Shown: piece by piece, positions 3,100 to 47,617 of the stretch
Layout: every line of letters starts with the position of its first letter
How positions within the stretch are numbered: position 1 is the stretch's first letter
DNA from: Patescibacteria group bacterium
GTDB taxonomy: Bacteria > Patescibacteriota > JABMPQ01 > JAQVVF01
Assembly (NCBI GenBank): GCA_041662665.1
Contig: JBAZSC010000003.1
Span: forward strand, 143,115-207,114
Direction: 5' to 3'
DNA: 64,000 nucleotides
Translations under genes and position numbers: made by a program
The notes under the pieces: model-generated
Database searches by the model: none
What the model was told of the DNA's origin: nothing
What the model saw: the letters and a program-made list of their open reading frames with translations, nothing else

Positions 3100-3441
3100 A
3101 TGAAAGAAGGAAGAGAGCCAATAGAAGGCATAGAATATCAAGAAATTTATTCTAGATACAAAGTTGAAATTGAAAAATACAAAGAAGAAATTGCTCAATA
3201 TGATCTATTGATAAAACATGAAGAAGAAAGAATGGCTGTTGCAAAAGTTGATTTAAAAAAACATGCTGATGATAAAAATCTATATGACTATATTCTAGAT
3301 AATTATGAGACACTCATGTTTCTTCGCGAAGAAAATATTATGTTAAGAAAAAGGGCAATCGATGAAATAGATCGTCTTGAAAAAATGGATAAAATTACAA
3401 CAAAAATGGCTTTAAATGTTAAGAAAGATGTGACAAATTAA
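3100..3441 (+). CDS. Hypothetical small coiled-coil protein
   Basis: 113 aa ORF, K/E-rich. No recognisable domain. Confidence 0.45.
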   Translation: MKEGREPIEGIEYQEIYSRYKVEIEKYKEEIAQYDLLIKHEEERMAVAKVDLKKHADDKNLYDYILDNYETLMFLREENIMLRKRAIDEIDRLEKMDKITTKMALNVKKDVTN

Positions 3442-3445
3442 TTTT

Positions 3446-4015
3446 ATGATGAAGAAGTTTGAGAGTTTTCTAAAAAATAAAAAAGCAAAATATAAGGTAG
3501 TTTCGCATCGCAAGGTTTATACTGCTTGGGATAGTTCAGCGACACAACATATCAATATTAAAACTGTTGCAAAGACATTATTAGTTAAAGCAGATAATGA
3601 TTATTTTTTTGTTGTTTTATCTGCGAATAAAAAATTGGATATAAATAAGCTGAAGAAAATTATTAATGTTTGGCGTGTGAAAGAGGCTAAAACTTTAGAC
3701 AATATAAGAACTGCAACCACTAAAGCATCCGCCTTCGCTAAAGCTTCGGCGGACAGGCAAAAATTATTAAAAGCACAGAAAATTAAAAAAATTTCATTGT
3801 GTTCTGAAAATATTGTTAAGAAAAAAATTGTTGGCAAAGAAGGAGCGATGGCGCCATTCGGCAGTTTTTATGGTTATAAAACTTTTGTTGATTCATTGTT
3901 GTTAAAACAAAAGAAAATTAATTTAAATGCTGGTAGTTTTACTGAATCTCTGGAAATGACTCCAGCGAATTATAAAAAAGTAGAAGAACCAATTGTTGGA
4001 AGTTTTGGAAAATAA
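3446..4015 (+). CDS. YbaK/ProX-type aminoacyl-tRNA deacylase-like protein carrying an in-frame palindromic-element insertion
   Basis: KTLLVKADNDYFFVVLSANKKLDINKLKK and GAMAPFGSFYG resemble the YbaK/ProX editing domain. A GC-rich repeat at 3727-3756 encodes KASAFAKASADRQ. Confidence 0.55.
   Translation: MMKKFESFLKNKKAKYKVVSHRKVYTAWDSSATQHINIKTVAKTLLVKADNDYFFVVLSANKKLDINKLKKIINVWRVKEAKTLDNIRTATTKASAFAKASADRQKLLKAQKIKKISLCSENIVKKKIVGKEGAMAPFGSFYGYKTFVDSLLLKQKKINLNAGSFTESLEMTPANYKKVEEPIVGSFGK
3727..3756. repeat. Palindromic element copy 1 (TCCGCCTTCG...CTTCGGCGGACA family), in-frame inside a CDS
   Basis: tccgccttcgctaaagcttcggcggaca. The outer inverted repeat tccgcc/ggcgga is read directly from the sequence. 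Confidence 0.8.
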
Positions 4016-4090
4016 AGAATCGCGAATTTACACAAATTTTTCACAAATGATGCACTAATTATACGGATTAAAAAAATTTAAAAATTATAA

Positions 4091-4750
4091 ATGCGTGAAC
4101 AAGAAGCAATTCATGATGTTACAATGGAATCAGAAAAAAAATCTGAGTCTGGTTTAGAAATCGTTAAAAATGAAGATTCGGAAAAAGTTGTAGAAATTGC
4201 AAAAGATTTGAATGATAAAATAGATAAAAATGAACCAATTAAAGGTGAGGAAGTATTGGATTTAAGAGAGGCATTGCGAAAGATGAAGTTTGATTTTTAT
4301 GGTGAAAAAAAGACTGCAGATGAGATAAAGGAGATTCCTAACGTAAAAAGAAATATCGAAATATATGAAAATGGAGAAATTATAGATTTTGATGAAGTGA
4401 CTTATCTGCCAAAAGAAATTGCAGTCAAATTGATTGCAAAAGCAACCGAAGCAAATACAGCAATATTTTTAAGAGGTTTGCATTTTATTTCTGACGAAGT
4501 AGCATTATTACTTAGCAGATTTGTTGGTAATATTTATCTTGATGGTTTAGAAACAATTACTGATAAGCAAGCCGAATTGTTTTTGGAACATAGGGGAGGT
4601 ATTACTTTAAGCGGTTTAACTGATTTGTCAGATATTGGGGTTAGATACCTATCTCAAACTTCTGATTTTTATGATTTTCCACCAAAAATTAAAACAAGAA
4701 TTGAGAACTATAGAAATGCAGAAATACAACGTAAAATTAGAAAAATTTGA
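4091..4750 (+). CDS. Hypothetical protein
   Basis: 219 aa ORF, acidic N-terminus. No recognisable domain. Confidence 0.5.
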   Translation: MREQEAIHDVTMESEKKSESGLEIVKNEDSEKVVEIAKDLNDKIDKNEPIKGEEVLDLREALRKMKFDFYGEKKTADEIKEIPNVKRNIEIYENGEIIDFDEVTYLPKEIAVKLIAKATEANTAIFLRGLHFISDEVALLLSRFVGNIYLDGLETITDKQAELFLEHRGGITLSGLTDLSDIGVRYLSQTSDFYDFPPKIKTRIENYRNAEIQRKIRKI

Positions 4751-5417
4751 AGGGCCTTTGGATTTACTTTTGGATTTGATTGAAAAAGAAAAAATGGATA
4801 TTACTCATGTTTCATTATCAAAAGTAACAGATGATTATCTAAAATATTTAGAAAATTCAGAGGAAATTAGTCCAGCATTGTTGGCTGATTTTTTGCATGT
4901 GGCAGCACAATTGATTTTGATAAAATCAAGAAACTTATTGCCAGAAATTAATTTAGGAACAGATGAAGAAGTTTCAGCTGCAGAATTGCAAGCTAGATTG
5001 TTGGAATACAAGAAATATAAAGATTTGTCATTAAAAATTCAAGAATTATATGGCAAAAATATTTCTTTTGAACAAAAATTTAGTTTGCAAAAAATCGATG
5101 CTTTCTATCCAGGAAAAACTTTGAATTTAAATAATATGAACTTAGCTTTGTCTGAATTACTTGGTAGATTTGAAAAAATAGAAATATTGGAAAAGAAAAC
5201 AATCAAAAAGGCAGTGTCAATCAAAGAAAAAATTGTTTTTATAAAAGGATTGATTTTGAAGCAAGCAAAATTTAAATTTCATGATTTAATTAAAAATAAA
5301 AAATCAAAGTCTGAAACAATTGTTTCTTTTTTGGCATTGCTGGAATTGAATAAACAGCATTGCTTAAATATCTCGCAAGAAAATATTTTTGGAGATATAC
5401 TTATAAATCGCGACTAG
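4716..5417 (+). CDS. scpA: Segregation and condensation protein A (ScpA)
   Basis: The N-terminal LEKFEGPLDLLLDLIEKEKMDITHVSLSKVTDDYLKYL is the ScpA signature. Start chosen at the internal ATG 4716; the track ORF extends back to 4635. Confidence 0.8.
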   Translation: MQKYNVKLEKFEGPLDLLLDLIEKEKMDITHVSLSKVTDDYLKYLENSEEISPALLADFLHVAAQLILIKSRNLLPEINLGTDEEVSAAELQARLLEYKKYKDLSLKIQELYGKNISFEQKFSLQKIDAFYPGKTLNLNNMNLALSELLGRFEKIEILEKKTIKKAVSIKEKIVFIKGLILKQAKFKFHDLIKNKKSKSETIVSFLALLELNKQHCLNISQENIFGDILINRD

Positions 5418-5451
5418 ATATTCGGATATTACGATATTCGGATATTAGAAA
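5417..5451. repeat. ATATTCGGATATTA tandem motif (locus 1 of 3), between scpA and scpB
   Basis: atattcggatattacgatattcggatattagaaat. Confidence 0.65.
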
Positions 5452-5462
5452 TAAAAATATTT

Positions 5463-6026
5463 ATGCTAAACCTACACAGTGCATTAGAATCATTGATATT
5501 TGCATCAGGAAAACCAATTGAGATAAAAAAATTGGGAAAGATTTGCAATGTTGAAGAAAAAAAAGTTCAAGAGACTTTAAAAATTTTGAATAGAGAATAC
5601 GAAAAAAATGATCGAGGTTTAAGATTAATTTTGCAATCTGATGTTGTGCAAATGGTAACAAATCCAAAGAATTCTGAAATAGTAAAAAGTTTGTCATCTA
5701 GTGAGCTGGCTGAAGATTTGTCAGCTGTTTCTTTAGAAAGTTTGACTATTATTGCATATAAAGGTCCGATTACTCGAGCAGAGCTTGAAGCAATTCGCGG
5801 AGTTAATTGTTTGTATGTATTAAGGAATTTGTTGATCAGAGGTTTGATTGAAAAAAAACAGCATCCAAAAGACTCAAGATTAGGAATATATGCAGTAACA
5901 ACAAAATTTTTAAGACATTTGGGATTAAATAAAATTTCTGATTTGCCAAATTATGAAGAAATGAAAGCAAAAATAATTCAACCTGTAAATGAAAAAAAAG
6001 ATGAACCTGTAGTTTTGGCAAAATAA
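5463..6026 (+). CDS. scpB: Segregation and condensation protein B (ScpB)
   Basis: LESLIFASGKPIEIKKL and tandem winged-helix-like repeats. Lies immediately downstream of scpA. Confidence 0.8.
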   Translation: MLNLHSALESLIFASGKPIEIKKLGKICNVEEKKVQETLKILNREYEKNDRGLRLILQSDVVQMVTNPKNSEIVKSLSSSELAEDLSAVSLESLTIIAYKGPITRAELEAIRGVNCLYVLRNLLIRGLIEKKQHPKDSRLGIYAVTTKFLRHLGLNKISDLPNYEEMKAKIIQPVNEKKDEPVVLAK

Positions 6027-6113
6027 AAATAGTCTTGACTGGTATTTGATTTTTGTAATAAAAATGGTGTAAACTTTAATATTACGGAAATTTTAAAAAA
6101 TAAAATAAAATCT

Positions 6114-8677: not shown

Positions 8678-8740
8678 GATTGTTAAATTGTTTCATTGTT
8701 AAATTGTTAGCTAAAAAGTTAACAATTTATCAATTTAACA
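8678..8740. repeat. TTGTTAAATTGTT motif cluster (2 direct copies plus 1 inverted), upstream of the CBS gene
   Basis: The exact 13-mer ttgttaaattgtt occurs at 8680 and 8696. Further exact copies are at 47724 and 53834. Confidence 0.55.
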
Positions 8741-8756
8741 TTAAGCAATAAATGCT

Positions 8757-9212
8757 ATGCAAGTACAAGAAGTAATGACGAAGAAAATTGTCAAAATAAA
8801 AAAAGGGACAACGCTTCGAGAAGCGGCAAAAATTTTGATCAAAAATGATATAACTGGCGCGCCTGTAGTTAACGAAAAAAATAAAGTGATTGGCTTAATT
8901 TCTGAAAAGAATGTTTTTAGAGCGTTGTATCCAAATTATGAAGAATTTTATATTGATCTAGATATAATTGCAAAACCAAATACTTTGAATGACAGATTAA
9001 AAAATATTGTTGATTTGAAAGTTGAAAATTTTATGGTTCGTGATGTTATTTCAGCCTTGCCTTCTGATTCTTTAGTAAAAGTTGGCGGAATTATGATGGC
9101 ACGAGGCGTTCATCGAGTTTTAGTTGTTGATGAAAAAGATACTTTGCTTGGCGTTGTTAGCAGAAGAGACATTTATCCAGTAGTTTTTAAAATGTTGTTA
9201 AATATAAAATAA
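8757..9212 (+). CDS. CBS-domain pair protein
   Basis: Two CBS-like modules, KIVKIKKGTTLREAAKILIKNDITGAPVV and FMVRDVISALPSDSLVKVGGIMMARGVHRVLVVD. Confidence 0.75.
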   Translation: MQVQEVMTKKIVKIKKGTTLREAAKILIKNDITGAPVVNEKNKVIGLISEKNVFRALYPNYEEFYIDLDIIAKPNTLNDRLKNIVDLKVENFMVRDVISALPSDSLVKVGGIMMARGVHRVLVVDEKDTLLGVVSRRDIYPVVFKMLLNIK

Positions 9213-9281
9213 CGAGTAACTAGTAATAAGTAACTAGTAATTAGTAATAAATATGCCAGAATTTCAGAGGTTGAGATAATT

Positions 9282-9315
9282 ATCCGCCTTCGCTTTGCTA
9301 AGCTTCGGCGGACAA
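9282..9315. repeat. Palindromic element copy 2, intergenic (upstream of mutM)
   Basis: atccgccttcgctttgctaagcttcggcggacaa. Confidence 0.8.
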
Positions 9316-9339: not shown

Positions 9340-10158
9340 ATGCCTGAATTACCAGAAGTAGAAACGATTAAAAGACAGCTAGAAAATAAAATAATTGGCA
9401 AGAAGATTAAGGATGTTGAAGTTCGATATGCCAAGTTATTAAATTTGCCAGAAAAAGATTTTATTAAACAAGTTTCTGGAAGTAAAATTGTTGCTTTAAA
9501 AAGAAGAGCAAAACTTTTGATTTGGCAATTATCAAATGATAAAAATTTAGTTTTTCATTTGAAGATGGCTGGACAGGTTATTTGGGCAGGAAAAAATCCA
9601 GAATTAGCAAGATATACTTATGTTATTTTTACTTTGTCAGATTCTAATAAAGTATTTTTTAATGATAAAAGAAAATTTGGTTGGGTGAAATTTTTGAATA
9701 ATCAAGATTTAGAAAAATTATTATTGTCTTATGGTCATGAACCATTAGATAAAAATTTTACTTGGCAAGATTTGAAAGAAATTTTAAATAAGAAAAAAAG
9801 AATTAGAATAAAACCATTGTTAATGGATCAAACTTTATTGGCTGGAGTTGGCAATATTTATGCTCAAGAAGCTTGTTTTTGCGCAGGAATTTTGCCAGAG
9901 CGAAAAGCAGGCGATATAGTTGACGAAGATATTAAAAAGTTGTATGATTGCTTGAAAAAAGTTTTACTTGATTCTATCAAACATCATGGTACTTCAGCTG
10001 ATGCTTATGTAGATGCAATGGGCAATAAGGGCAGTTTTGAAGCAAGATTGAAAGTTTATGGACGTGAAGGCGAGAAATGTTATAGATGCGGTGGAATAGT
10101 AAAAAAGATGAGACTTGGGGGACGAGGAACTTATTTTTGTCCAAAATGCCAAGCGTAG
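9340..10158 (+). CDS. mutM: Formamidopyrimidine-DNA glycosylase (Fpg/MutM)
   Basis: The N-terminal MPELPEVE catalytic signature and a C-terminal zinc finger, CYRCGG...CPKCQ. Confidence 0.92.
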   Translation: MPELPEVETIKRQLENKIIGKKIKDVEVRYAKLLNLPEKDFIKQVSGSKIVALKRRAKLLIWQLSNDKNLVFHLKMAGQVIWAGKNPELARYTYVIFTLSDSNKVFFNDKRKFGWVKFLNNQDLEKLLLSYGHEPLDKNFTWQDLKEILNKKKRIRIKPLLMDQTLLAGVGNIYAQEACFCAGILPERKAGDIVDEDIKKLYDCLKKVLLDSIKHHGTSADAYVDAMGNKGSFEARLKVYGREGEKCYRCGGIVKKMRLGGRGTYFCPKCQA

Positions 10159-10179
10159 AGACGTAGCATTGCTACGTCT
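10159..10179 (+). terminator. Perfect 9-bp hairpin right after the mutM stop (weak T tract)
   Basis: agacgtagc-att-gctacgtct. The T-run lies only ~8 nt downstream. Confidence 0.4.
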
Positions 10180-10199
10180 GTACAAAGATTTTTAAAGTT

Positions 10200-10233
10200 A
10201 TCCGCCTTCGTCCTGTGGGACTTCGGCGGACAG
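10200..10233. repeat. Palindromic element copy 3, intergenic (downstream of mutM)
   Basis: atccgccttcgtcctgtgggacttcggcggacag, with inner hairpin gtcc-tgtg-ggac. Confidence 0.8.
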
Positions 10234-12714: not shown

Positions 12715-12784
12715 ATTAAGAATTATGAATAATGATCTAATGCTTTGATCATAATTCATTATTCATGATTCATAATTCATTTTT

Positions 12785-13462
12785 ATGATTGAATTCAAAC
12801 AAATTAACAAATCTTATTCTGACGGTCTTGTTTTAAGTGATATAAATCTCACAGTCAATGACGGCGAATTTATTACTTTTGTTGGAAGATCTGGCGTTGG
12901 CAAAACGACTATTTTTCGGTTGCTAATTGGTGAAGAAAAACCAGATTCAGGAGAATTAATTGTTAATGGCTGTAATGTCGAAAAATTAAGCAAAAGCAGA
13001 ATTCCATATTATCGCAGAAAATTAGGCGTTGTGTTTCAGGATTTTAAATTGTTATCAAGAAAAACTGTTTATGAAAATGTGGCTTTTACTTTGGTTGTAT
13101 CAGGTGCATCAAATAAAAAAATAAAAGAATTGGTACCACAAGCTATTGGCTTGGTTGGATTGTCAGGAAAAGAAGAACGTTTTCCGCATGAATTGTCAGG
13201 TGGTGAACAACAACGTTGTGCAATTGCAAGAGCTATAGTTCATCAACCAAAAATTTTGATAGCTGATGAGTTGACTGGTGATTTGGATGCAATTTATTCT
13301 TGGGAAATTATGGAAATATTATTAAGAATTAATAAGCTTGGAAATACTGTTTTGATTGCAACTCATGATCGAGATATTGTTAATCGTTTGAATAAAAGAG
13401 TGATTACAATGGAAAATGGCAAGATTGCCAAAGATCAGCGTGTAGGGCACTACATGATCTAA
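12785..13462 (+). CDS. ftsE: Cell division ABC transporter ATP-binding protein FtsE
   Basis: Walker A GRSGVGKTT, signature LSGGEQQR, Walker B ILIADE. Immediately upstream of an FtsX-like permease. Confidence 0.85.
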   Translation: MIEFKQINKSYSDGLVLSDINLTVNDGEFITFVGRSGVGKTTIFRLLIGEEKPDSGELIVNGCNVEKLSKSRIPYYRRKLGVVFQDFKLLSRKTVYENVAFTLVVSGASNKKIKELVPQAIGLVGLSGKEERFPHELSGGEQQRCAIARAIVHQPKILIADELTGDLDAIYSWEIMEILLRINKLGNTVLIATHDRDIVNRLNKRVITMENGKIAKDQRVGHYMI

Positions 13463-14565: not shown

Positions 14566-15435
14566 ATGAGCGTTATTGAAGTTAAAAATTTAAAAAAATA
14601 TTTTGGCAAGACTAAGGCAGTTGATGGTATTAGTTTTGAAGTTAAAAAAGGAGAGATCTTTGGTTTTTTGGGTCCAAATGGTGCAGGCAAGACAACAGCA
14701 ATTCGATGTATGATGGATTTTATAAAACCGACAAGTGGCGAAATTAAAATTTTAGACAGAGATGCCCAAAAAGACTCTGTTTTTTTGAAAGAAAAAATTG
14801 GCTATTTATCAGGAACTGTCAGGCTCTATGATAAATGGACTGGTAAAGAGCATCTTGATTTTATTAAAGAATTAAATGGCAAAAATAATATTGCTAATGA
14901 TTTGATTAAAAGATTAGACTTTGATGTTAAAGTGAAAACAAAAAGTCTGTCATCTGGAAACAGACAAAAGCTTGGAATAATTATGGCAATGTTATGCAAT
15001 CCAGAAGTTTTAATTCTTGATGAGCCATCAATGGCTCTTGATCCTTTGATGCAACATGAAGTTTATCATTTGATTAAAGAAGCATCAGAAAAAGGAACAA
15101 CTGTTTTTATGTCTTCTCATAATTTGGCAGAAGTGCAGAAAATTTGCAGTAGAATTGGAATTATAAAAAATGGCAAGATGGTAGCAATGGAAGATATTTC
15201 GACTTTGCGACAAAAAAGTATGTATACGATGAATATTAATTTTGAAGATAAAATTAATGCTGATGATTTTAAATTAGCTGGAGTTGAGATAATTAAGGCA
15301 TTGCCGAATGAGTTAAGTCTAGGAGTGAAAGGCGATTTGAATCCAATAATCAAAAAAATTGGTAATTATAGAATAAAAGATTTGGATATTGAACCTGCAT
15401 CTCTGGAAGAGATTTTCTTGGAATATTATGGTTAA
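14566..15435 (+). CDS. ABC transporter ATP-binding protein (ABC-2 type)
   Basis: GPNGAGKTT, LSSGNRQKL, LILDEPSMALD. Confidence 0.85.
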   Translation: MSVIEVKNLKKYFGKTKAVDGISFEVKKGEIFGFLGPNGAGKTTAIRCMMDFIKPTSGEIKILDRDAQKDSVFLKEKIGYLSGTVRLYDKWTGKEHLDFIKELNGKNNIANDLIKRLDFDVKVKTKSLSSGNRQKLGIIMAMLCNPEVLILDEPSMALDPLMQHEVYHLIKEASEKGTTVFMSSHNLAEVQKICSRIGIIKNGKMVAMEDISTLRQKSMYTMNINFEDKINADDFKLAGVEIIKALPNELSLGVKGDLNPIIKKIGNYRIKDLDIEPASLEEIFLEYYG

Positions 15436-19290: not shown

Positions 19291-19342
19291 GCCCCTACTG
19301 TTTTTATATTGAAATATTGAAGATTTGCGCTATAATAGGGTT

Positions 19343-19380
19343 GTTCCGCCTTCGTCTCCTTTCGGGAGACTCCGGCGGAT
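19343..19380. repeat. Palindromic element copy 4, abutting the tRNA-Gln 5' end
   Basis: gttccgccttcgtctcctttcgggagactccggcggat, with inner hairpin gtctcc-tttcg-ggagac. Confidence 0.75.
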
Positions 19381-19385: not shown

Positions 19386-19456
19386 TCCGGGATCGTCTAA
19401 TGGTAGGACAACAGGTTCTGGACCTGTTTATCTTGGTTCGAATCCAGGTCCCGGAG
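19386..19456 (+). tRNA. tRNA-Gln (anticodon CTG)
   Basis: Manual fold: acceptor tccggga/tcccgga, D-stem gtct/ggac with a GG loop, anticodon stem acagg/cctgt with loop ttCTGga, T-arm cttgg-TTCGAAT-ccagg, discriminator G. No CCA is encoded. Confidence 0.85.
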
Positions 19457-23016: not shown

Positions 23017-23035
23017 CTTAAAAATTTTAATATTG

Positions 23036-23080
23036 AGATATTCGGATATTACGGATATTAGAAATTAGAAATTAGAAATT
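23036..23080. repeat. ATATTCGGATATTA tandem motif (locus 2 of 3) plus 3x AAATTAG, between the response regulator and kinase genes
   Basis: gatattcggatattacggatattagaaattagaaattagaaatt. Confidence 0.65.
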
Positions 23081-23086
23081 TTCGTC

Positions 23087-24097
23087 ATGACATTTAAATC
23101 TGCTTATCTAAAATTAACGGCATTTTATGTTCTGATTGTAATGATAATCAGTATTTTTTTTAGTGTTGTTTTATATCGGATTTCTTCAAATGAATTGAAT
23201 GAGAGATTGAGACAGCAAATGCAAAACTTTCAAGAATTGCAGTTTTTTGAAGGAAGTATGAATTATATTAATAGTTTTGAATTAATGAGATTGCAGCAGT
23301 TAGCACAAGCAAATCATAATTTAAAATTCTTTTTAATTTATTTTAATTTTTTTATTCTGGCTGTATCTTTTGGTTTGGGATATTTTTTAGCCCAAAGAAC
23401 ATTAAAACCAATCAAACAAATGATGGAATCGCAGAATAGATTTACAGCTGATGCATCTCATGAATTAAGGACTCCTTTAACTGCGATGAAATCTGAAATT
23501 GAAGTTAATTTGCGAGATAATAATTTGAGTTTAGAAAATGCTAAAAAATTATTAAGAAGTAATTTAGAAGAAGTGGAAAAGTTGGAAAATTTATCTAGGT
23601 CATTATTAAAATTGGCAAATTATGAAAGTAATAAAAATTTAATAATTACAAATGTGGCTTTAGAAGATATTATTGCAGAAAGTTATTTACGTGTAGAAAA
23701 ATTGGCAAAAGAAAAGCAGATTACTTTTGAAAATGATTTGAAAAATATAAAAGTTAATGGCAATAGAGATTCTTTGATTCAACTTTTTAAAATTTTATTA
23801 GATAATGCAATTAAATATAGCAAACCAAATTCTAAAATATTTATTTTGATGGATAAAGTAAAAAATGATGCAATTATAAAAGTTCGTGATCAAGGAATGG
23901 GTATTAAGGAAGAAGAATTGAAGCATATTTTTGATCGATTTTATCGAACAGATTTGTCGCGATCAAAAGAAAAAAATAATGGCTATGGATTAGGATTATC
24001 AATTGCGATGCAGATTGTAAAATTACATAATGGAAAAATTAGCGTGGAAAGTCAGATCGAACAAGGATCCGAATTTACTGTTATCTTACCAATCTAA
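23087..24097 (+). CDS. Sensor histidine kinase
   Basis: Two N-terminal TM helices, H-box ADASHELRTPLT, G-box GYGLGLSIA. Confidence 0.88.
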   Translation: MTFKSAYLKLTAFYVLIVMIISIFFSVVLYRISSNELNERLRQQMQNFQELQFFEGSMNYINSFELMRLQQLAQANHNLKFFLIYFNFFILAVSFGLGYFLAQRTLKPIKQMMESQNRFTADASHELRTPLTAMKSEIEVNLRDNNLSLENAKKLLRSNLEEVEKLENLSRSLLKLANYESNKNLIITNVALEDIIAESYLRVEKLAKEKQITFENDLKNIKVNGNRDSLIQLFKILLDNAIKYSKPNSKIFILMDKVKNDAIIKVRDQGMGIKEEELKHIFDRFYRTDLSRSKEKNNGYGLGLSIAMQIVKLHNGKISVESQIEQGSEFTVILPI

Positions 24098-26465: not shown

Positions 26466-27158
26466 ATGATAGAGTGCAAGGGTATTACGAAAATTTACAA
26501 GTCTGGCGAGAATGAATTCAAGGCATTAGACAATGTTTCATTCAAAATTAATGATGGAGAATATGTGGCAATTGTTGGCCCTTCTGGTTCTGGGAAATCA
26601 ACTTTGATGCATATTATCGGTGCTTTGGATACGCCAACATCTGGAGAATATCTATTGGATGATAAGGATGTTTCGAAATTATCTGATGATGAATTGGCAG
26701 AAATTAGGAAAAATAAAATTGGTTTTGTTTTTCAATCTTTTAATTTATTGCCAAGAGCTACTGTATTAAAAAATGTAATTTTGTCATTAATTTATTCTGA
26801 TAAAGATGTGGAAAAGAGAGAGGAAAAAGCCAAGCAAGCATTGTTGCAGGCTGGCATGGATGAAAATCATTTTAATCATCTTTCGAATCAACTTTCTGGT
26901 GGACAAATGCAAAGAGTAGCTATTGCAAGAGCTTTAGTTAATAATCCTTCTTTAATTTTAGCTGATGAGCCAACTGGAAATTTGGATACAAAAACTGGAG
27001 AAATAGTTTTGAAAACTTTTGAAGATTTGAATAGAAAAGAACATCATACGATAATTCTAATTACACACGAACATGATGTGGCGAAACATGCGGATAGGGT
27101 TATTCAGATTAAGGATGGAAAAATTATTAAGGATGATAAAAATATAAAAACTTATTAA
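26466..27158 (+). CDS. MacB/LolD-type ABC transporter ATP-binding protein
   Basis: [35 protein letters not shown]. Confidence 0.88.
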
Positions 27159-28466: not shown

Positions 28467-28500
28467 ATCCGCCTTCGTCCTGCGGGACTTCGGCGGACAA
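28467..28500. repeat. Palindromic element copy 5, intergenic, immediately 5' of the 28510 start codon
   Basis: catccgccttcgtcctgcgggacttcggcggacaa. The inner hairpin is the same as in the nrdG copy. Confidence 0.8.
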
Positions 28501-29887: not shown

Positions 29888-29966
29888 ATCTGCCTTCGTC
29901 CCTCGCTTTGCGAAGATGAGGGACTTCCTCCTTCGCTACGTTACGGAGGACAAGTCGGCGGACAAA
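29888..29966. repeat. Palindromic element copy 6, composite/nested double element
   Basis: atctgccttcg-gtccctc...gagggac-ttcc-tcctccttcg...ggagga-caagtcggcggacaaag. Two nested hairpins lie inside the family termini. Confidence 0.7.
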
Positions 29967-31768: not shown

Positions 31769-32686
31769 TTAATGTTGAAATTTTTTCTGCGTTTTCTGCG
31801 TAAGATTCTGCGTTTTTCTGCGATTTATTTTTTTTACGCAGAATGACGCGGAACTAACGCAGAATGTGCAGAATTTATCTGACCCTTTGTTTATTCTCGC
31901 CAAAACGATGCATGTCTGAAGCAGGGATTTTTTTCCAGCATTATCTCTAATTTCAGTACCTGTTACTTTCAAAAAAACATCTTGAAGAGTTGGATTTTCT
32001 TTATTGGTTACTAATTTTTTTAAATTTTCTGAATTATCTAAAGCAACAATTTTTCCATGATCAACAATTGCAATTCTATTTGATAAAATATCAGCTTCTA
32101 ACATGTCATGTGTTGTAAGCAAAATAGTAATTCCTTTTTTATTTAATTCTTGAATAAATTCTCTAATTAAATTGGATGTTTGTGGATCAAGCCCAAGAGT
32201 TGGTTCATCAAGAAAGAGAATATTTGGTTCAGTTAATAAGGCGCGAACAATATTGATTCTTTGTTTCATGCCAGTTGAATATGTTCCAACTTGAGAATCA
32301 AGCCAATCAGTCATGTGCAATCGATCAACCCATTTTTTTGTTCGATCTGTAATTTGTTGTTTTGAGAGATGAAAAAGTTGGCCGAAGAATCTTAGATTTT
32401 CTCGAGCAGTTAATCGATCATAAAGAATAATTTTTTCTGCGACTAAGCCGATTTGTTTTCTAATGTCATCTGGATCTTTTTTTAAATCAAAACCAGCTAT
32501 TTTAATTTCACCTTCTGTTGGCTGTAAAAGTGTGGTTAAAATTCTGATTGTTGTTGACTTGCCAGCACCATTTGGGCCAAGAAATCCAAAGATTTCACCT
32601 TTTTTAATTTCAAAGCTAATATTGTCAACTGCAATAAATTTTTTAAATTTTTTTGTTAAATTTTTTACTTCAATAATATTTTCCAT
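31769..32686 (-). CDS. ABC transporter ATP-binding protein (ABC-2 type) whose 3' tail runs through the CGCAGAA repeat array
   Basis: GPNGAGKST, YSTGMKQRI, LFLDEPTLGLD. The domain ends near LQDVFLKVTG; the final ~55 codons translate repeat DNA. Confidence 0.8.
   Translation of the reverse strand: MENIIEVKNLTKKFKKFIAVDNISFEIKKGEIFGFLGPNGAGKSTTIRILTTLLQPTEGEIKIAGFDLKKDPDDIRKQIGLVAEKIILYDRLTARENLRFFGQLFHLSKQQITDRTKKWVDRLHMTDWLDSQVGTYSTGMKQRINIVRALLTEPNILFLDEPTLGLDPQTSNLIREFIQELNKKGITILLTTHDMLEADILSNRIAIVDHGKIVALDNSENLKKLVTNKENPTLQDVFLKVTGTEIRDNAGKKSLLQTCIVLARINKGSDKFCTFCVSSASFCVKKINRRKTQNLTQKTQKKFQH
31783..31873. promoter_or_regulatory. Palindromic super-array: 4x TTCTGCG, AT spacer, then 4x CGCAGAA, between the ABC ATPase and permease genes on the minus strand
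   Basis: ttctgcg at 31785, 31794, 31806 and 31816. acgcagaa/acgcggaa at 31836, 31846, 31857 and 31866. Confidence 0.6.
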
Positions 32687-34783: not shown

Positions 34784-34866
34784 ACGCAGAACAACGCAGA
34801 AGCTGACGCAGAAGACGCAGAAAAGTTTCCGCATTTTCTGCGTTGGATTCTGCGTATGTCTGCGTT
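34784..34866. promoter_or_regulatory. Everted super-array: 4x ACGCAGAA then 4x (T)TCTGCG, upstream of the MacB-type ATPase gene 34943
   Basis: acgcagaa at 34784, 34794, 34806 and 34814. ttccgca/ttctgcg/ttctgcg/gtctgcg at 34828-34864. Confidence 0.6.
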
Positions 34867-34942: not shown

Positions 34943-35623
34943 ATGAAAAATGTTATTGAAGCTAAGGGTTTGAAAAAAATATATAAAATGTCAAAGACAA
35001 ATATTGTTCATGCTTTGAATGGTGTTGATTTGAATGTGGAAGAAGGCGAATTTACTGCAATTATTGGACCTTCTGGATCCGGAAAATCAACTTTGATGCA
35101 TATCTTTGGTTTGTTAGACAAGCCAGATGAAGGAACTTTAATCATTGATGGAGTTGATATGAGTAATTTAAAAGACAAAGAAGCTTATAAATTGCGTGCA
35201 AAAAAAATTGGTTTTGTTTTTCAAGGATTTAATTTGATTCCGGCATTGTCAGCTTTGGAAAATATTATGTTGGCTGGAAAATATGGAGGAATGAAAATGA
35301 CTGAAAGAAAAGCCAGAGCAATTGAATTATTAAAAATGGTTGGACTAGAATCAAGAATGAATCACAAGCCAAATGAATTGTCTGGCGGACAACAGCAAAG
35401 AGTAGCAATTGCTCGAGCTTTGATGAACAAGCCAGCAATTATTCTAGCTGATGAGCCAACTGGAGAATTGGATACAAAAACATCTTTAGAAATTATTGAA
35501 TTGATGAAAAAATTAAATAAAGAAGATAATCAAACATTTTTGTTGGTTACACATAACATGGAAGTGGCGAAAGATTGTAGAAAAATTGTAGAGATGAGAG
35601 ATGGGCAAAAAATAACAAAATAA
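34943..35623 (+). CDS. MacB/LolD-type ABC transporter ATP-binding protein
   Basis: [35 protein letters not shown]. Confidence 0.88.
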
Positions 35624-37494: not shown

Positions 37495-38838
37495 ATGCAA
37501 AAAATGAAAACTAAAGAAGAAGTACTAACGTTATGTGAAAGAGAAAAAGTGAAATTTATTGACCTGCAATTTTCTGATTTATTAGGTCATGTAAAGTCAG
37601 TAACAATTCCAATTGCAAAATTACCTGAAGCAATTGATCAAAATATTTGGTTTGATGGATCTTCAATAGAAGGTTTTGCAAGAATTTGTGAAAGCGATAT
37701 GTATTTGAAATTAGATTTATCAACTTTTGCGATTTTACCATGGACAACTGATAACGGAAATGTGACTGCTCGATTTATTTGCGATGTTTATAAGCCAAAT
37801 GGCGAAGCATATGAAAGCGATCCAAGATATATTTTGAAAAAACAAGTTGCAAAAGCATTATCTTTTGGTTTTAAATATTTTGTTGGTCCAGAATTGGAAT
37901 TTTATTTAATGAAAAGAGATGAAAATGGGAAGATTATTCCATTGCCTCATGATCATGCTGGATATTTTGATTATGCAACTGATGAAGATTCAGAAGTGCG
38001 TAAAGATATGACAACAGCATTGCAAAAACTTGGAATTTTTGTTGAAGCTTTGCATCATGAAGTTGGACCTGGACAGCATGAAATTGATTTTAAATATGGC
38101 GATCCGATTACAACTGCTGATTCGGTTTTGACTTTCAAAATTGCTTTGAAACAAATTGCTAGAAAACATGGATTATTTGTGAGCTTTATGCCAAAGCCAT
38201 TTTTTGGTTTAGCTGGAAATGGGATGCATGTTCATCAAAGTATTTTTATGAATGAGCGGAATGCTTTTTATGATGCAAATGGTTTGTATCATATTAGTGA
38301 ATTAGCAAAATCATTTATTGCTGGACAGTTATTTCATATTAAAGCTTTGAATTCAATTTTAAATCCAATTGTTAATTCATATAAAAGATTAGTATCAGGA
38401 TATGAAGCTCCAGTTTATATTTCTTGGGGACAGGTTAATAGATCGGCTTTAGTTAGAATTCCAAGAGTAAATAGCAATAAACCAAGCGCAACAAGAGCTG
38501 AACTTCGCTGTCCAGATCCAGCTTCAAATCCGTATTTAGCATTTGCAACTATGTTAGCTTCAGGAATTGATGGAATAGAAAATGAAATGTTGTTGCCATT
38601 GCCTGTTGAAGAAAATGTTTTTGAAATGACAAATGAGGAAATGTTAAATCGAGGAATTGAAACTTTGCCAGCTAATTTGTTTGAATCATTAAGACATTTA
38701 GTAAAAGATCAATTATTGCGTGAGGTTTTTGGTGAGACAACTTTCAAAAAATATTATGATATTAAAATGAAAGAATGGGATAATTTTAGAATTTATGTTA
38801 CTGATTGGGAACGTGATAATTATTTGGAAAGATATTAA
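37495..38838 (+). CDS. glnA: Glutamine synthetase type I
   Basis: 447 aa. N-terminal beta-grasp FIDLQFSDLLGHVKSVTIP, and a conserved catalytic region (GPEQEF-like GPELEFYLM). Confidence 0.88.
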   Translation: MQKMKTKEEVLTLCEREKVKFIDLQFSDLLGHVKSVTIPIAKLPEAIDQNIWFDGSSIEGFARICESDMYLKLDLSTFAILPWTTDNGNVTARFICDVYKPNGEAYESDPRYILKKQVAKALSFGFKYFVGPELEFYLMKRDENGKIIPLPHDHAGYFDYATDEDSEVRKDMTTALQKLGIFVEALHHEVGPGQHEIDFKYGDPITTADSVLTFKIALKQIARKHGLFVSFMPKPFFGLAGNGMHVHQSIFMNERNAFYDANGLYHISELAKSFIAGQLFHIKALNSILNPIVNSYKRLVSGYEAPVYISWGQVNRSALVRIPRVNSNKPSATRAELRCPDPASNPYLAFATMLASGIDGIENEMLLPLPVEENVFEMTNEEMLNRGIETLPANLFESLRHLVKDQLLREVFGETTFKKYYDIKMKEWDNFRIYVTDWERDNYLERY

Positions 38839-38865
38839 ATATGAATCATGAATTATGAATTAAGA

Positions 38866-38889
38866 ATAGGCGAAAGCCTATTTTTTTTA
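38866..38889 (+). terminator. Rho-independent terminator after glnA
   Basis: taggc-gaaa-gccta followed by T9. Confidence 0.75.
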
Positions 38890-39856: not shown

Positions 39857-40462
39857 ATGATTAAGTATATTTTGCATGGCGGTGCGACGAAAATAGATAA
39901 TAAATCGAATCAAGATTTTAATCAGGAAATTGTAAAAGATTTACAAGAGCCAATTAAGATATTGCTTGTTTGTTTTGCTAAGGATAAAGAGCAATGGAAG
40001 GATGCATTTGAAAGACATAAGAGCTATCTAATAAAATATAATTTAGGTAAGAATTTTGAATTCGCCTTAGCTGATGAAAATTCGGTGAGATTTATTGATC
40101 AGATAAAAAATAATCATGTTTTATATTTTGTGGGAGGAAGTGATGAGTTATTGCAAAAATATTTAAAGAAAATAAATGATTTAGGTACTTTATTTAATGA
40201 TAAAGTTGTTGTAGGTTCTTCAGCTGGAGCAAATATGTTAGCAAAATATTATTATTCAACTGACGATAATTGTATTAAAAATGGTTTGGGAATTTTGCCA
40301 ATTAAAGTTTTTTGTCATTATAAAAATAATTTAAAAGAGCTTGAAGAATTAAAAAAATATAAAGAGAATTTAAAAATATATACGATTTATGAAACGGAAT
40401 ATTTAGTTATAAAACAAATAATATCCCCCTGCCATGGGCAGGGTAGAAGTTTTGAATGTTAA
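39857..40462 (+). CDS. Peptidase S51 (dipeptidase E/cyanophycinase-like) family protein
   Basis: LYFVGGSDELL...VVVGSSAGANMLAKY. The C-terminal 12 codons (SPCHGQGRSFEC) are encoded by a GC-rich hairpin repeat. Confidence 0.55.
   Translation: MIKYILHGGATKIDNKSNQDFNQEIVKDLQEPIKILLVCFAKDKEQWKDAFERHKSYLIKYNLGKNFEFALADENSVRFIDQIKNNHVLYFVGGSDELLQKYLKKINDLGTLFNDKVVVGSSAGANMLAKYYYSTDDNCIKNGLGILPIKVFCHYKNNLKELEELKKYKENLKIYTIYETEYLVIKQIISPCHGQGRSFEC
40425..40449. repeat. GC-rich hairpin repeat (copy B, inverted orientation, in the 3' end of the S51 peptidase CDS)
   Basis: ccccctgccatgggcagggtagaag is the reverse complement of copy A, with one mismatch. Confidence 0.7.
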
Positions 40463-44709: not shown

Positions 44710-44823
44710 CGCAGTAAGATTTATTTCATACTTTTTTGTTGATAACATTTTTAAAACTTGTGTTATACTTTAAATGACTATAAAAGCTTCGAAAAATATA
44801 AATTGTTTAAAACAAAAATAAAA

Positions 44824-44866
44824 ATAGCTGTTTTAGTAATTGAATGATTGATTACAGCTATTTTTT
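44824..44866 (+). other. Hairpin with T-run (8-bp stem, 22-nt loop) in the 375-nt nrdD leader; terminator or attenuator candidate
   Basis: atagctgt...acagctat followed by tttttt. Confidence 0.35.
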
Positions 44867-44936
44867 GTCCTCTATTTTTAAAGAAAAAACTTTAAGGAAG
44901 AGGATTTTTAATCCGCAAAAAATGAATTTGATGTTA

Positions 44937-44970
44937 ATCCGCCTTCGTCTTGCGAGACTATGGCGGATAA
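44937..44970. repeat. Palindromic element copy 7, in the long nrdD leader region
   Basis: atccgccttcgtcttgcgagactatggcggataaag, with inner hairpin gtct-tgcg-agac. Confidence 0.75.
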
Positions 44971-45084: not shown

Positions 45085-46977
45085 ATGAAGGATCAAAACA
45101 AACAAACAAAAAAGGAGAGAAAAGAAGTAAATGTTGATGTTCTGTCAACCATAGATGAATATTTAGGAAAGATGGATTGGCGAGTTTCAGCAAATGCAAA
45201 CCAAGGCTATTCTTTAGGCGGTATGATTTTGAATACTGCTGGAAAAGTAGTAGCTAATTATTGGTTGCACAAAATTTATCCAAAGGAAGTTGGAGAAGCG
45301 CATATCCATGGTGATTATCATATTCATGATTTGGATATGTTTTCAGGCTATTGCGCTGGTTGGAGCATTAGGCAACTTCTTGAAGAAGGATTTAATGGTG
45401 TTTCTGGTAAGGTTGAATCTGGTCCAGCAAAACATTTAGAAACAGCTTTGGGTCAAATGGTAAATTTTTTAGGAACATTACAAAATGAATGGGCAGGCGC
45501 TCAAGCATTTTCATCTTTTGACACATATTTAGCGCCATTTGTTAAAGTTGATAAATTAAGTTATGAAAGAGTTTTTCAATGCATTCAGCAATTTGTTTTT
45601 AATTTAAATGTTCCATCAAGATGGGGAACACAGACGCCATTTACAAATGTTACTTTAGATTGGGTTTGTCCAGAAGATATGAAAGATCGAAAACCAGTAA
45701 TTGGTGGAAAAGTCGTTGATTTTACTTATGGAGATTGCCAAAAAGAAATGGATTTAGTCAATAAAGCTTTTATTGAAACAATGATTACTGGAGATAATAA
45801 AAGCAGAATTTTTACTTTTCCAATTCCAACTTATAATATTACAAAAGATTTTGATTGGGAAAATGAAAATGTAAAATTATTATTTGAAATGACTGCTAAA
45901 TATGGCACTCCTTATTTTCAAAATTTTTTGAATTCAAGTTTAAAACCATCTGATGTCAGAAGCATGTGCTGTAGATTGCAATTAGATTTGCGTGAATTGA
46001 AAGCAAAAGGCGGAGGTTTGTTTGGTTCAGCAGAAATGACTGGCAGTATTGGTGTTGTAACTATTAATTTGGCAAGAATTGGTTATCTAGCTAAAACAAA
46101 AGAAGAATTTTTACAACGATTAGCAAGATTAATGGATCTTGCAAAGACTTCTTTAGATATGAAAAGAAAAGTAATTGAGGAAAACATGGAAAAAGGATTG
46201 TTGCCATATACAAAACGCTATCTTGGATCTTTGCATAATCATTTTTCAACAATTGGCATTAACGGATCTAATGAAGCCTGTTTGAATTTTTTAAAAAAAG
46301 ATATTTCTCATCCAGAAGCGAAGAAATTCATTGTTGAAGTTTTGGATTTTATGAGAAAAAAATTAGCTGACTATCAAGAAGAGACAAACAATTTTTATAA
46401 TTTGGAGGCAACTCCGGCAGAAGGAACGACTTATAGGTTTGCAAAAGAAGATCAGAAAAGATATCCAGATATTATTCAAGCTGGAACAAAAGATGCGCCA
46501 TATTATACAAACTCAACTCATTTGCCAGTTGGTTATACTGATAATCCAATGGAAGCTTTGGATCATCAAGATGATTTGCAGACTAAATATACAGGCGGAA
46601 CAGTATTGCATTTATTTTTGGGCGAAAGGATTATGAATTGGAAAGTTTGTCGAGATTTAGTAAAAAGAGTAGCTGAAAATTACAGATTGCCATATTTTAC
46701 GATGACTCCGACATTTAGCATTTGTCCAACGCATGGCTATTTGAATGGCGAGCAAAAGAATTGCCCAATTTGTGAAAAAGAATGCGAAGTTTGGTCAAGA
46801 GTAATGGGATATTTTAGACCTGTTTCACAATGGAATAAAGGCAAGCAAAGTGAATATAAAGAACGCAAAGAATATGAAATTAAGAATTTAAAATATGAAA
46901 ATAGCAGGATTTCAGAAATTAAGCCTATTGGAATATCCAGACCGGATTTGCGCAATAGTGTTTCTGCAAGGATGTAA
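45085..46977 (+). CDS. nrdD: Anaerobic ribonucleoside-triphosphate reductase (class III)
   Basis: C-terminal Zn/Gly-radical region CPTHGYLNGEQKNCPICEK...RVMGYFRPVSQWNKGKQSE and a central RNR fold. Confidence 0.9.
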   Translation: MKDQNKQTKKERKEVNVDVLSTIDEYLGKMDWRVSANANQGYSLGGMILNTAGKVVANYWLHKIYPKEVGEAHIHGDYHIHDLDMFSGYCAGWSIRQLLEEGFNGVSGKVESGPAKHLETALGQMVNFLGTLQNEWAGAQAFSSFDTYLAPFVKVDKLSYERVFQCIQQFVFNLNVPSRWGTQTPFTNVTLDWVCPEDMKDRKPVIGGKVVDFTYGDCQKEMDLVNKAFIETMITGDNKSRIFTFPIPTYNITKDFDWENENVKLLFEMTAKYGTPYFQNFLNSSLKPSDVRSMCCRLQLDLRELKAKGGGLFGSAEMTGSIGVVTINLARIGYLAKTKEEFLQRLARLMDLAKTSLDMKRKVIEENMEKGLLPYTKRYLGSLHNHFSTIGINGSNEACLNFLKKDISHPEAKKFIVEVLDFMRKKLADYQEETNNFYNLEATPAEGTTYRFAKEDQKRYPDIIQAGTKDAPYYTNSTHLPVGYTDNPMEALDHQDDLQTKYTGGTVLHLFLGERIMNWKVCRDLVKRVAENYRLPYFTMTPTFSICPTHGYLNGEQKNCPICEKECEVWSRVMGYFRPVSQWNKGKQSEYKERKEYEIKNLKYENSRISEIKPIGISRPDLRNSVSARM

Positions 46978-47617
46978 TTTTAAGTGTCCTTTTTGCCATA
47001 ATCCAGAATTGGTATATAACGATCCGCCTACGTCCTGCGGGACTTTGGCGGACAAAGTAACCGAGGAAGAGGTCTTCGGTTATTTGGTTAAGAAGAAAAA
47101 AATGCTAGATGGAGTTTGTATCACAGGAGGCGAGCCAACTTTGCATGCTGATTTGATTGATTTTATTGTAAAGCTTAAAAAGATTGGATATTTGGTTAAG
47201 CTGGATACAAATGGATCAAACCCTAAAATGTTGAAAGAACTTTTTGACAAAAAATTACTTGATTATGTGGCTATGGATTTAAAAGCACCATTTGAAAGAT
47301 ATTCGGAAATTGTGGGTTTAGGGCATAGGGCACAGGGCTTGGGTATTATTGAAAATTGTAAAAAGTCTTTTAAATTAATCCAGGAATCTTCCGTTGATCA
47401 TGAATTTAGGACGACTGTTTTTCCGCAAGAACATATAGAAAATGATTTTATGAAAATGGCAGGATATCTGAAAAAAGGCGAGAAATATTATTTGCAAAAT
47501 ATTAGATACATTAAAAATTTAGATCAAAATTTGGATCAAAGTAAAAAAATAGATATTGCTATGCTTTTGAATAAATTAAAGAGTAAATTTCCTGATATTT
47601 GTGTTGAAGAAAGATAA
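46895..47617 (+). CDS. nrdG: Anaerobic ribonucleotide reductase activating protein (radical SAM) with an in-frame palindromic-element insertion
   Basis: GCNFKCPFCHNPEL, then the insertion-encoded DPPTSCGTLADK, then ITGGEPTL. Overlaps the nrdD 3' end by 83 nt. Confidence 0.8.
   Translation: MKIAGFQKLSLLEYPDRICAIVFLQGCNFKCPFCHNPELVYNDPPTSCGTLADKVTEEEVFGYLVKKKKMLDGVCITGGEPTLHADLIDFIVKLKKIGYLVKLDTNGSNPKMLKELFDKKLLDYVAMDLKAPFERYSEIVGLGHRAQGLGIIENCKKSFKLIQESSVDHEFRTTVFPQEHIENDFMKMAGYLKKGEKYYLQNIRYIKNLDQNLDQSKKIDIAMLLNKLKSKFPDICVEER
47011..47046. repeat. Palindromic element copy 8, in-frame inside nrdG
   Basis: atccgcctacgtcctgcgggactttggcggacaaag, which encodes DPPTSCGTLADK. Confidence 0.8.

Follow-up and report, generated by a model that had tools for sequence, protein, structure and literature searches.

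An in-frame copy of a two-tier hairpin repeat in a YbaK/ProX-type deacylase gene of a Patescibacteria-group genome

The Rickettsia palindromic elements (RPEs), described in Rickettsia, are found between genes and also in frame within functional genes, where they use a preferred frame and occupy permissive protein sites (Ogata et al., via Di Nocera et al. 2013, PMC3733652). Repetitive extragenic palindromes (REPs) tagged with GTAG or CGTC occur in 8 phyla, and are also seen inside genes, often DNA repair genes. RPE-4 and RPE-6 have been equated with the CGTC REPs, a group that also includes Neisseria dRS3; a dedicated transposase is not known for these REPs, and TGTC is an accepted variant of their tag. 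Their stems are 8-9 bp long and start with AT, with a 4-5 nt loop and a CCA tail (Di Nocera et al. 2013, PMC3733652). Here we describe a hairpin element in a 64-kb stretch of DNA (the window, referring to this whole stretch), which comes from a Patescibacteria-group metagenome-assembled genome (as judged from the source names on an identical protein). One copy, at 3727-3756, lies in frame in the open reading frame (ORF) 3446..4015, which encodes a YbaK/ProX-type deacylase. We consider it probable that this copy is a tolerated, translated passenger, derived from a REP-like hairpin and carried in a surface loop of a functional deacylase.

We observed that the letters at 3727-3756 (ATCCGCCTTCGCTAAAGCTTCGGCGGACAG) are read in the register in which the TCC at 3728-3730 forms one codon of the ORF, and that 3722-3760 is translated as KASAFAKASADRQ. 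The copy carries the tail ACAG and an outer GC/GC closing pair, and encodes ASAFAKASADR. Its predicted fold is ((.((((((...((....))...))))))...)), with an energy of -13.5 kcal/mol (z=-2.15).

ORF 3446..4015 is a genuine gene. It matched the Pfam family tRNA_edit (PF04073) with E=2.8e-18, and the match was split into two stretches, indicating that the domain is interrupted. Alignment with 73 homologues showed that 20 of the 20 invariant columns were kept (including K43, F138-G139-S140 and D149), and the gene order is shared with relatives (AspRS, DUF2330, hypothetical, YbaK, hypothetical, ScpA, ScpB, dCMP deaminase). The AlphaFold2 model had a mean predicted local distance difference test (pLDDT) score of 89.5, with the core above 90, and Foldseek returned YbaK (1dbx), ProX (2dxa/2z0k) and 3op6 with target-normalised TM-scores of 0.78-0.84 (probability 1.0 for 1dbx, 2dxa and 2z0k). 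The preliminary description of this DNA, made from the letters alone, had placed an in-frame copy in a YbaK/ProX-like gene, and had named an unreal ORF, unconserved in relatives, as what would overturn this. The Pfam match, the homologues with their invariant residues, the synteny and the predicted fold uphold the assignment.

The alignments point to an insertion at the site of the element. The nearest orthologues (P0002 and P0003; 161 aa, 83-84% identical, syntenic) are without 28 residues here, in protein as well as in DNA, and the same residues are missing in all 16 aligned homologues. A gap in YbaK-like orthologues, which had been proposed as a check, is therefore seen; the inserted stretch is 84 nt and not the 30-nt element alone. 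The site is length-variable in the family, other homologues carrying 6-11 extra residues nearby, and 3op6 (the one solved relative found by sequence) has only 18 residues opposite query residues 76-130. In the AlphaFold2 model, residues 91-110 have pLDDT values of 60-66 and lie at a helix-loop-helix tip (H66-91, H98-110). The insertion is thus modelled at the protein surface, at the tip of a helical hairpin and in a low-confidence part of the model.

The hairpin in the deacylase gene belongs to a family. A repeat search of the window gave six members, the pattern CCGCC-N8-30-GGCGGA was present at 7 window sites (0.03 expected from shuffles), and a structure-aware scan found 8 copies of 25-35 nt each in the 64 kb, 8/8 on the + strand (Table 1). 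The plan consists of an outer 6-bp stem TCC[G/T]CC/GG[C/A]GGA, a symmetric 3x3 TTC/TTC internal loop, a G-C closing pair and a variable inner stem-loop, and the whole element can be written as A-TCCGCC-TTC-G[variable stem-loop]C-TTC-GGCGGA-CARG; window copies usually have an A directly 5' and ACA(A/G)G directly 3'. The minimum-energy structure was the two-tier hairpin in 8/8 copies (-13.5 to -22.5 kcal/mol, z -1.6 to -4.5). The inner stems vary and yet remain paired (GC/GC, GCTT/AAGC, GTCC/GGAC, GTCT/AGAC, GTCTCC/GGAGAC). The inner stem GTCC-TGYG-GGAC is common to three copies and a fourth differs by one compensated pair; these near-identical inner stems lend support to a spread of the element inside the genome. 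Coding sequence makes up 87% of the window and yet holds only 2/8 copies, which is a clear depletion (P=1e-4). The G+C content of the window is about 30% and its GC skew is positive throughout, with genes mostly on the + strand.

Table 1. Positions of the deacylase gene, its insertion and the eight hairpin copies in the window
Feature	Position	Strand	Remarks
YbaK/ProX-type aminoacyl-tRNA trans-editing (deacylase) gene	3446..4015	+	189 aa; host of coding copy
Lineage-specific insertion containing the element	3686..3769	+	84 nt / 28 codons = AKTLDNIRTATTKASAFAKASADRQKLL; edges uncertain by a few codons
Copy in YbaK gene	3725..3758	+	core hairpin 3728-3753 = TCCGCC-TTC-GC(TAAA)GC-TTC-GGCGGA; copy start 3728
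Intergenic copy	9283..9312	+	28 nt upstream of fpg start codon; inner stem GCTT/AAGC
Intergenic copy	10201..10230	+	43 nt past fpg stop codon; inner stem GTCC/GGAC
Intergenic copy	19345..19379	+	6 nt upstream of tRNA-Gln (19386-19456); inner stem GTCTCC(T)/GGGAGAC
Intergenic copy	28468..28497	+	13 nt upstream of ATG at 28510; 26/29 nt common with YbaK copy
Intergenic copy	29926..29950	+	TCCTCC/GGAGGA variant; extended outer stem GACTT/AAGTC
Intergenic copy	44938..44967	+	118 nt upstream of nrdD; inside about 125 nt absent from relatives
Coding copy in nrdG (ORF 46895..47617)	47023..47052	+	read DPPTSCGTLADK; variable linker after CxxxCxxC-HNPEL motif

The family is distributed across phyla. 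We scanned one genome per species (596 Gb) with the pattern CCTTCG-N4-20-CTTCGG[A/C]GGACA and retrieved at least 120 loci; several hundred chance hits of this pattern were estimated for 596 Gb, and hits without the complementary TCC[G/T] prefix were discarded. About 2/3 of the matches listed also had an inner palindrome and the complementary TCC[G/T] prefix, neither of which is part of the pattern. Among the matches listed, the hairpin was present in at least 13 phyla: Bradyrhizobium and other Pseudomonadota, Bacteroidota, Verrucomicrobiota, Planctomycetota, Acidobacteriota, Nitrospirota, Omnitrophota, Elusimicrobiota, Armatimonadota, Lentisphaerota, Kiritimatiellota, Bdellovibrionota and four Patescibacteria lineages. 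Loci of Bradyrhizobium, Rikenellaceae and Nitrospirae have a core identical to that of the YbaK copy. A stricter pattern gave further matches in metagenomes, those listed being a lower bound, and about 30 real copies were seen on IMG/VR viral contigs. No match was obtained with blastn against curated plasmids (PLSDB) and phages (INPHARED), a search that is uninformative for diverged copies.

When we examined 207 distinct canonical copies, the flank consensus was GC[T/A] on the 5' side and CA[A/G]G[T/C] on the 3' side, and the closing pair was G-C in 205 of them. The lengths clustered at 26 nt (n=98), 29 nt (n=39) and 32 nt (n=18). A length of 2 modulo 3 was found for 77-80% of copies in GC-rich and GC-poor genomes alike, and for 4/11 in the window lineage. 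Pairing is retained through covariation: in 30 distinct 29-nt copies 98% of cells were paired, the third inner pair (which the finder does not require) was UA in 11, CG in 8, GC in 7, AU in 2 and unpaired in 2, and the covariation score was reached by 0/500 shuffles. In low-GC loci, intergenic copies lay in 10 convergent as against 3 divergent spacers.

The coding copies show a strong frame bias. ORFs that extend 40 or more codons beyond a copy in both directions were taken as coding candidates (GC-rich loci being framed from their flanks only, by a third-position G+C rule), which gave 46 candidates, 33 with the 3' arm read as ..G GCG GAx. The candidates were then placed with respect to Pfam domains or by another stated criterion, and 26 were accepted as coding. 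In these checked copies, the 3' arm was read as ..G GCG GAx in 24/26 (binomial p=5e-10) and the 5' arm as TCC GCC in 22/26 (p=1e-7). The 26 copies comprise 13 sense and 13 antisense ones, and the preferred phase is used in both orientations, giving S-A-F-A-K-A-S-A-D in sense and S-A-E-A-L-A-K-A-D/E in antisense. Sense copies with both arms in phase (S-A-F-A-K-A-S-A-D-K type) were found in RecF, UvrD, an ABC ATPase, RsmG, an HMBD protein, an FHA-T2SSE ATPase, PEP synthase, a phage capsid fusion and the window YbaK; the 3' arm alone was in phase in a PD40 protein, a phage HTH protein and nrdG, and the 5' arm alone in DnaJ (G/F region). Antisense copies in the preferred phase (L-S-A-E-A-L-A-K-A-D/E type) were found in an ABC-F protein, a GT28 glycosyltransferase, fumarylacetoacetase, a metallo-beta-lactamase, a FecR anti-sigma factor, an FGE-sulfatase, a QH-AmDH gamma subunit, a methyltransferase, a GIY-YIG/MmeI protein, a 1,639-aa protein (without Pfam match; accepted on ORF length), a phage primase and a phage S49 protease. 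The antisense copy in XerC/D was in another phase. Among other-phase candidates, L153, L202 (TypA), L215 and L235 were rejected as non-coding, the copy being upstream of the true start, and L164 and L209 were unplaceable and left out of the 26.

The preferred-phase consensus is TCC GCC TTC GCC AAG GCT TCG GCG GAC AAG, in which 9/10 codons end in G or C, and no stop codon is present in any of its six frames. The other phases yield PPSPRLRRT, RLRQGFGGQ, VRRSLGEGG or CPPKPWRRR. Selection after insertion and a bias at insertion itself fit these data equally well; that the bias arises on entry into genes, as the preliminary description had it, was thus an assumption. We favour selection, since the preferred peptide is the mildest of these and the copies lie in loops and inter-domain linkers.

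The earlier proposal of a preferred frame had come from the two coding copies of the window, those in YbaK and nrdG, from which it cannot be derived (a 1-in-3 chance); it is the 24/26 coding copies, from many phyla, that carry it. nrdG encodes a radical-SAM activase and adjoins nrdD, and its copy reads GAT CCG CCT ACG TCC TGC GGG ACT TTG GCG GAC AAA (translation in Table 1). Both ORFs confirmed that GCG-GAC-A(A/G) is translated as Ala-Asp-Lys/Arg. The two copies share one frame, as had been stated, in their 3' arms (GCG GAC A), but the 5' arms are out of register (TCC GCC in YbaK, T CCG CC in nrdG), because the inner part of the nrdG copy is 4 nt longer.

The relatives differ in which copies they carry. 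We counted 8 copies in the 64 kb of the window and 3 in 41 kb of the relative GCA_964574655.1, and zero in the syntenic relatives L320 (20 kb), L321 (20 kb) and L009 (8.8 kb) and in L005, a further scanned relative. Two loci come from GCA_964574655.1: L001, which is syntenic with window positions 1-13 kb, has 0/3 of the window copies, and L008 has 3 copies, for 2 of which the corresponding window site is empty. The family thus behaves like a REP, being dispersed, mostly between genes and different in presence between close relatives. The 30 bases in the deacylase gene would be one copy of a REP-type, non-autonomous palindromic element. Copies may arise anywhere, via a trans-acting hairpin-dependent process or by templated copying from another copy, and purifying selection would then retain those that are intergenic or are in frame and free of stops; retained coding copies would be those whose phase is the mild, Ala-rich one (TCC GCC ... 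GCG GAx) and whose sites are loops or linkers that tolerate them. Translation of the 84-nt insertion would add 28 residues, with ASAFAKASADR derived from the element, at the helical-hairpin tip in the length-variable region. Since the insertion leaves the catalytic core intact, the enzyme most likely tolerates the copy as a passenger and does not use it as a working part.

Several observations weigh against this. Four comparisons of filled and empty sites showed no recognisable ends, clean boundaries or target duplications. The filled-minus-empty lengths were +84 nt for YbaK, about +100 nt for the BON spacer and about +125 nt for the nrdD leader; for nrdG they were +18 nt in the window and +0 nt in L008, in comparison to the empty alleles of L009, L320 and L321 (near-identical to one another). 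The lengths fall into 3-nt classes (26, 29, 32) though most copies are intergenic. When the 1,162 ORFs of 202 element-bearing loci were compared all against all by BLAST, neither a linked transposase nor another recurrent family emerged (the largest ORF cluster near copies was ABC ATPases, at 6 loci). A 26-nt hairpin conserved in sequence across phyla is unexplained by a purely selfish element, unless a conserved partner recognises the hairpin. Finally, 11/11 copies in the window and L008 run along transcription, which would also fit a role at the RNA level.

Some of these features would suit a different origin for the gene copy, by gene conversion or template switching from another locus, or partly by building in place on a native arm. 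We regard this as possible, though not as the probable course. The copies in YbaK and at 28468 share 26/29 nt from the 3' arm into the 3' flank, and the match extends 17 nt past the hairpin into the region of the ribosome-binding site and ATG of gene 28510, which hints at copying between loci; the 5' flanks are, however, dissimilar, and the flank match is A/T-rich and may be due to chance (estimated at about 1e-3 after multiple comparisons). The insertions are longer than the element and without clean ends, as copying would allow. The nrdG site gives further support. Among 120 listed NrdG homologues, only the window NrdG and P0078 (from GCA_964574655.1) carry the segment; in the latter, the DNA at the same site is GATCCTCCTTCGTCCTGCGGGACTTCGGAGGAC, with the outer stem altered on both sides (TCCGCC/GGCGGA to TCCTCC/GGAGGA). 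No net length was gained there (L008), and its 3' arm GGAGGA coincides with native GAG GAA codons. The identities of ClpB, NrdD, S11 and M54 place the window genome slightly nearer to L009 (empty) than to L008 (filled), so the filled allele is common to two genomes that are not each other's closest relatives, which calls for a loss, for two gains at one site or for a transfer of the allele. Against this origin, copying between loci leaves the presence of the hairpin in at least 13 phyla unexplained.

The start of nrdG was also observed to differ between gene calls. The ORF begins with the ATG at 46895, so that its first 83 nt lie within the 3' end of nrdD, and the public call (P0074, 219 aa) begins 21 codons later; the longer ORF is probably correct, since its N-terminus MKIAGFQKLSLLEYP is conserved in L008 and L009. 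The public nrdG call of L008 begins MVGDPP..., and the N-terminus upstream of it reads through in frame. Upstream of nrdD (44810-44880), an AT-rich hairpin ATAGCTG...CAGCTAT followed by TTTTTTG is conserved in all four relatives. It would be a terminator-like site or a leader element, separate from the GC-rich repeat.

We also evaluated the hairpin as a functional RNA element (a stabiliser of mRNA, a processing mark, an exonuclease block or a means of slowing the ribosome), in which case the copy in the deacylase gene would be kept for an effect on expression or on co-translational folding. In favour of this, 11/11 copies are co-oriented with the surrounding genes (two-sided p ~0.001), 5' leaders and the spaces separating cistrons both hold copies (one of them flanked by a TATAAT box and tRNA-Gln), and the stable hairpins keep their pairing through covariation. 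However, orientation is inseparable from replication direction here, because the GC skew is positive throughout and the genes are co-directional. Outside this lineage both orientations are used, as seen from the equal numbers of sense and antisense coding copies, and antisense copies exceed sense ones in low-GC spacers between tandem genes, the window and L008 being set aside. A T-run follows no copy, and the nrdD leader has a separate hairpin with a T-run beside the element. Close relatives are without copies at the same sites, and Rfam has no matching family: at the gathering threshold, the window and 18 element-bearing loci gave tRNAs only, and a permissive search around one copy gave a best sub-threshold match of E=2.2 (chance). 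Perfect stems can moreover be maintained without selection, by quasi-palindrome template switching. We regard an RNA role as unlikely.

Two more specific roles were rejected. Intrinsic terminators are likewise GC-rich hairpins after genes, but a T-run follows the hairpin in 0/8 window copies, whose 3' flanks are CAGGCAAAAA, CAAAGGACGA, CAGGTAAAGT, TTGCGATCCG, CAAGGAAAAA, CAAGTCGGCG, TAAAGTTAGT and CAAAGTAACC. A leader hairpin set at the 5' terminus by a promoter suits the copy at 19345 only, and -10-like boxes upstream of the others are inconsistent.

It is also conceivable that the encoded peptide, S-A-F/E-A-K/L-A-S/K-A-D/E, is the selected product (a linker or surface-helix module) and the palindrome its by-product. 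The single phase in both orientations, the lengths in 3-nt steps, the G- or C-ending codons (typical of genuine genes in GC-rich bacteria) and the many coding copies in inter-domain linkers would agree with this. We nevertheless find it very improbable: most copies are intergenic (including 6/8 in the window), the hosts are mutually unrelated (RecF, UvrD, ABC ATPases, RsmG, DnaJ, phage primase and capsid proteins), orthologues without the peptide are the rule, and the inner part varies freely while the DNA stays paired. A chance resemblance, or an ORF that is no gene, is practically negligible, nothing speaking for either beyond a weak two-copy frame argument. A translated, tolerated passenger thus remains our preferred account of the YbaK copy.

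As to the known systems, the likeness to RPEs that the preliminary description had drawn stands for the preferred in-frame use, but not for a lineage-specific family, as at least 13 phyla carry the present hairpin. The element further differs from RPEs in its length (26-35 nt; RPE-1 is roughly 100-150 bp), its nested stem and 3x3 internal loop, its presence on phage contigs, and the use of one phase in both orientations. It resembles the GTAG REPs, which are mobilised by REP-associated tyrosine transposases (RAYTs; IS200/IS605-like Y1 enzymes, whose genes often have the repeats at their sides), and the REPINs (REP doublets forming hairpins) in being an imperfect palindrome in the 20-40 nt range that is dispersed, lies in spacers at gene 3' ends and sometimes within genes, and varies in copy number. 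In contrast to GTAG REPs, its flank consensus has no GTAG or CTAC tag, and unlike REPINs and bacterial interspersed mosaic elements (BIMEs), the window copies are same-strand singletons and not inverted pairs; a few tandem or clustered copies were seen elsewhere (L066, L086, L152). No RAYT was seen near copies, judging from the absence of a recurrent neighbour family in the 202 loci and from a window that is 64 kb of the genome.

The CGTC REPs may be close in other respects. On the reverse strand, TGTC, which may correspond to their tag, stands directly before the stem (CTTGTC-CGCC...); it abuts the stem in 6/8 window copies, and in the collection scans it is partly forced by the GGACA end of the pattern. 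Copies also lie inside genes, including one UvrD and one RecF here. The present element differs from these REPs in its GC outer stem, its TTC/TTC internal loop, its second, variable stem and the absence of a CCA tail. In L029, L054, L061, L068, L088, L091 and L117 (Bradyrhizobium and other Alphaproteobacteria), the hairpin is apparently nested in the loop of a larger palindrome, for example TGGATTGC[hairpin]GCT(T/A)CGCTCGCAATGA and CTCCCCGC[hairpin]GCGGGG, and in Bradyrhizobium the enclosing palindrome appears, from its sequence, to be a CGTC-like REP. The UvrD of L017 (Bradyrhizobium frederickii; 3356-6061, minus strand) has an insertion of about 75 aa between helicase motifs. It is composed of various translated palindromic repeats, one of which is a copy of this hairpin (GPASAFAKASADMSG), and echoes the published REPs in DNA repair genes.

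Miniature inverted-repeat transposable elements (MITEs) have the terminal inverted repeats of insertion sequences, cause target-site duplications and are 70-300 bp long; the present copies, in contrast, have no common flanks beyond the hairpin and no target duplications at the four filled/empty sites. The GC clusters and 'byp' elements of the very AT-rich yeast mitochondrial genome are likewise short, GC-rich and mobile hairpins, with copies in protein genes as well, and byps are skipped by the ribosome. The window copy differs in being in frame and stop-free, so that plain read-through suffices. The element strings were absent from the text and supplements of PMC3733652 and from the text of a 2025 REP survey, and no literature match was found for the exact DNA or for any of the six translated peptides. 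We have thus come across no earlier account of this family; for palindromic repeats in frame in general, Rickettsia RPEs and intragenic REPs are known precedents.

We tentatively raise the possibility, which we do not hold to be the likelier case, that these copies form one pan-bacterial repeat family, spanning at least 13 phyla (including Patescibacteria) and phage genomes and seemingly built to be translated. The last part of this suggestion comes from the 3-nt length classes, the absence of stops in six frames and the single Ala-rich phase in either orientation. The outer arms, the TTC/TTC loop and the CARG tail are conserved in sequence across phyla. If the suggestion is true, such conservation would imply a universal host factor that recognises the hairpin, or a spread that depends on living inside genes, and it may be asked which conserved factor or process recognises and spreads it. 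Intragenic palindromes would in any case mark protein parts that tolerate extra residues, and be a source of new protein segments. For the annotation of uncultured bacteria, copies make spurious small ORFs and odd 'insertions' in essential genes, and probably also cause wrong start-site calls (as in the nrdG of L008).

Copies were also seen close to tRNA genes: 18/215 lay within 200 nt of a tRNA, with 2.6 expected at random positions. By our estimate this excess is mostly due to copies and tRNAs both being confined to non-coding DNA. Five loci form an exception (L039 7843-7876, L096 1627-1660, L167, L179 and L184; at least 2 are Saccharibacteria): their tRNA-Ser genes overlap at the 3' end with a conserved hairpin, a 34-nt copy that begins in the last bases of the tRNA. 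In L039 and L096, the TCCGCC arm is made up of the acceptor end, the discriminator base and CC, and a second, small hairpin GCGGAC-AAA-GTCCGC follows. In the window, a TATAAT box (19326-19331) precedes the copy 19345-19379 and tRNA-Gln(CTG), and this copy would form the 5' leader of the tRNA precursor. In a Rikenellaceae locus (L057), a copy lies 5 nt upstream of tRNA-Ala.

Other repeats were observed in the same DNA. A second hairpin family, GTAG-AGACG[variable stem-loop]CGTCT-GTAC, is present at 10155-10190 of the window and at 16513-16541 of L001. The TAG of the window copy is the fpg stop codon, and the relative's sister copy lies in the CBS-fpg spacer, with an inner stem that is completely different and yet fully paired. 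The family has the look of a classic GTAG-tagged REP, here in a Patescibacteria genome. A third, GTAG-type repeat is the hairpin CCCTGCC-NNN-GGCAGGG with the tail GGCAGGG-TAGAAG, found at 1200-1238 and 40414-40452 in opposite orientations; the latter copy overlaps the 3' end of ORF 39857..40462. Many spacers (5416-5462, 23020-23092, 47615-47661; 8679-8717, 47707-47745, 53833-53871; 31783-31822, 34785-34864; 12740-12794, 38833-38868; 9212-9245; 50578-50720) hold short tandem 'word' repeats (ATATTCGGATATTACG, AATTGTTAAATTGTT, TTCTGCG, TCATAATTCAT, GTAACTAGTAAT, ATTAGAAATT), some of which recur in distant spacers, and the relative L001 has words of its own (GTTATAAAG x3, TTCGAATAT). Finally, stretches that are 65-80% identical between distant genes (13187-13296, 26886-26995 and 35372-35481; 14573-14702 and 32547-32676) are probably paralogous ABC-transporter or FtsX-type genes and not mobile repeats.

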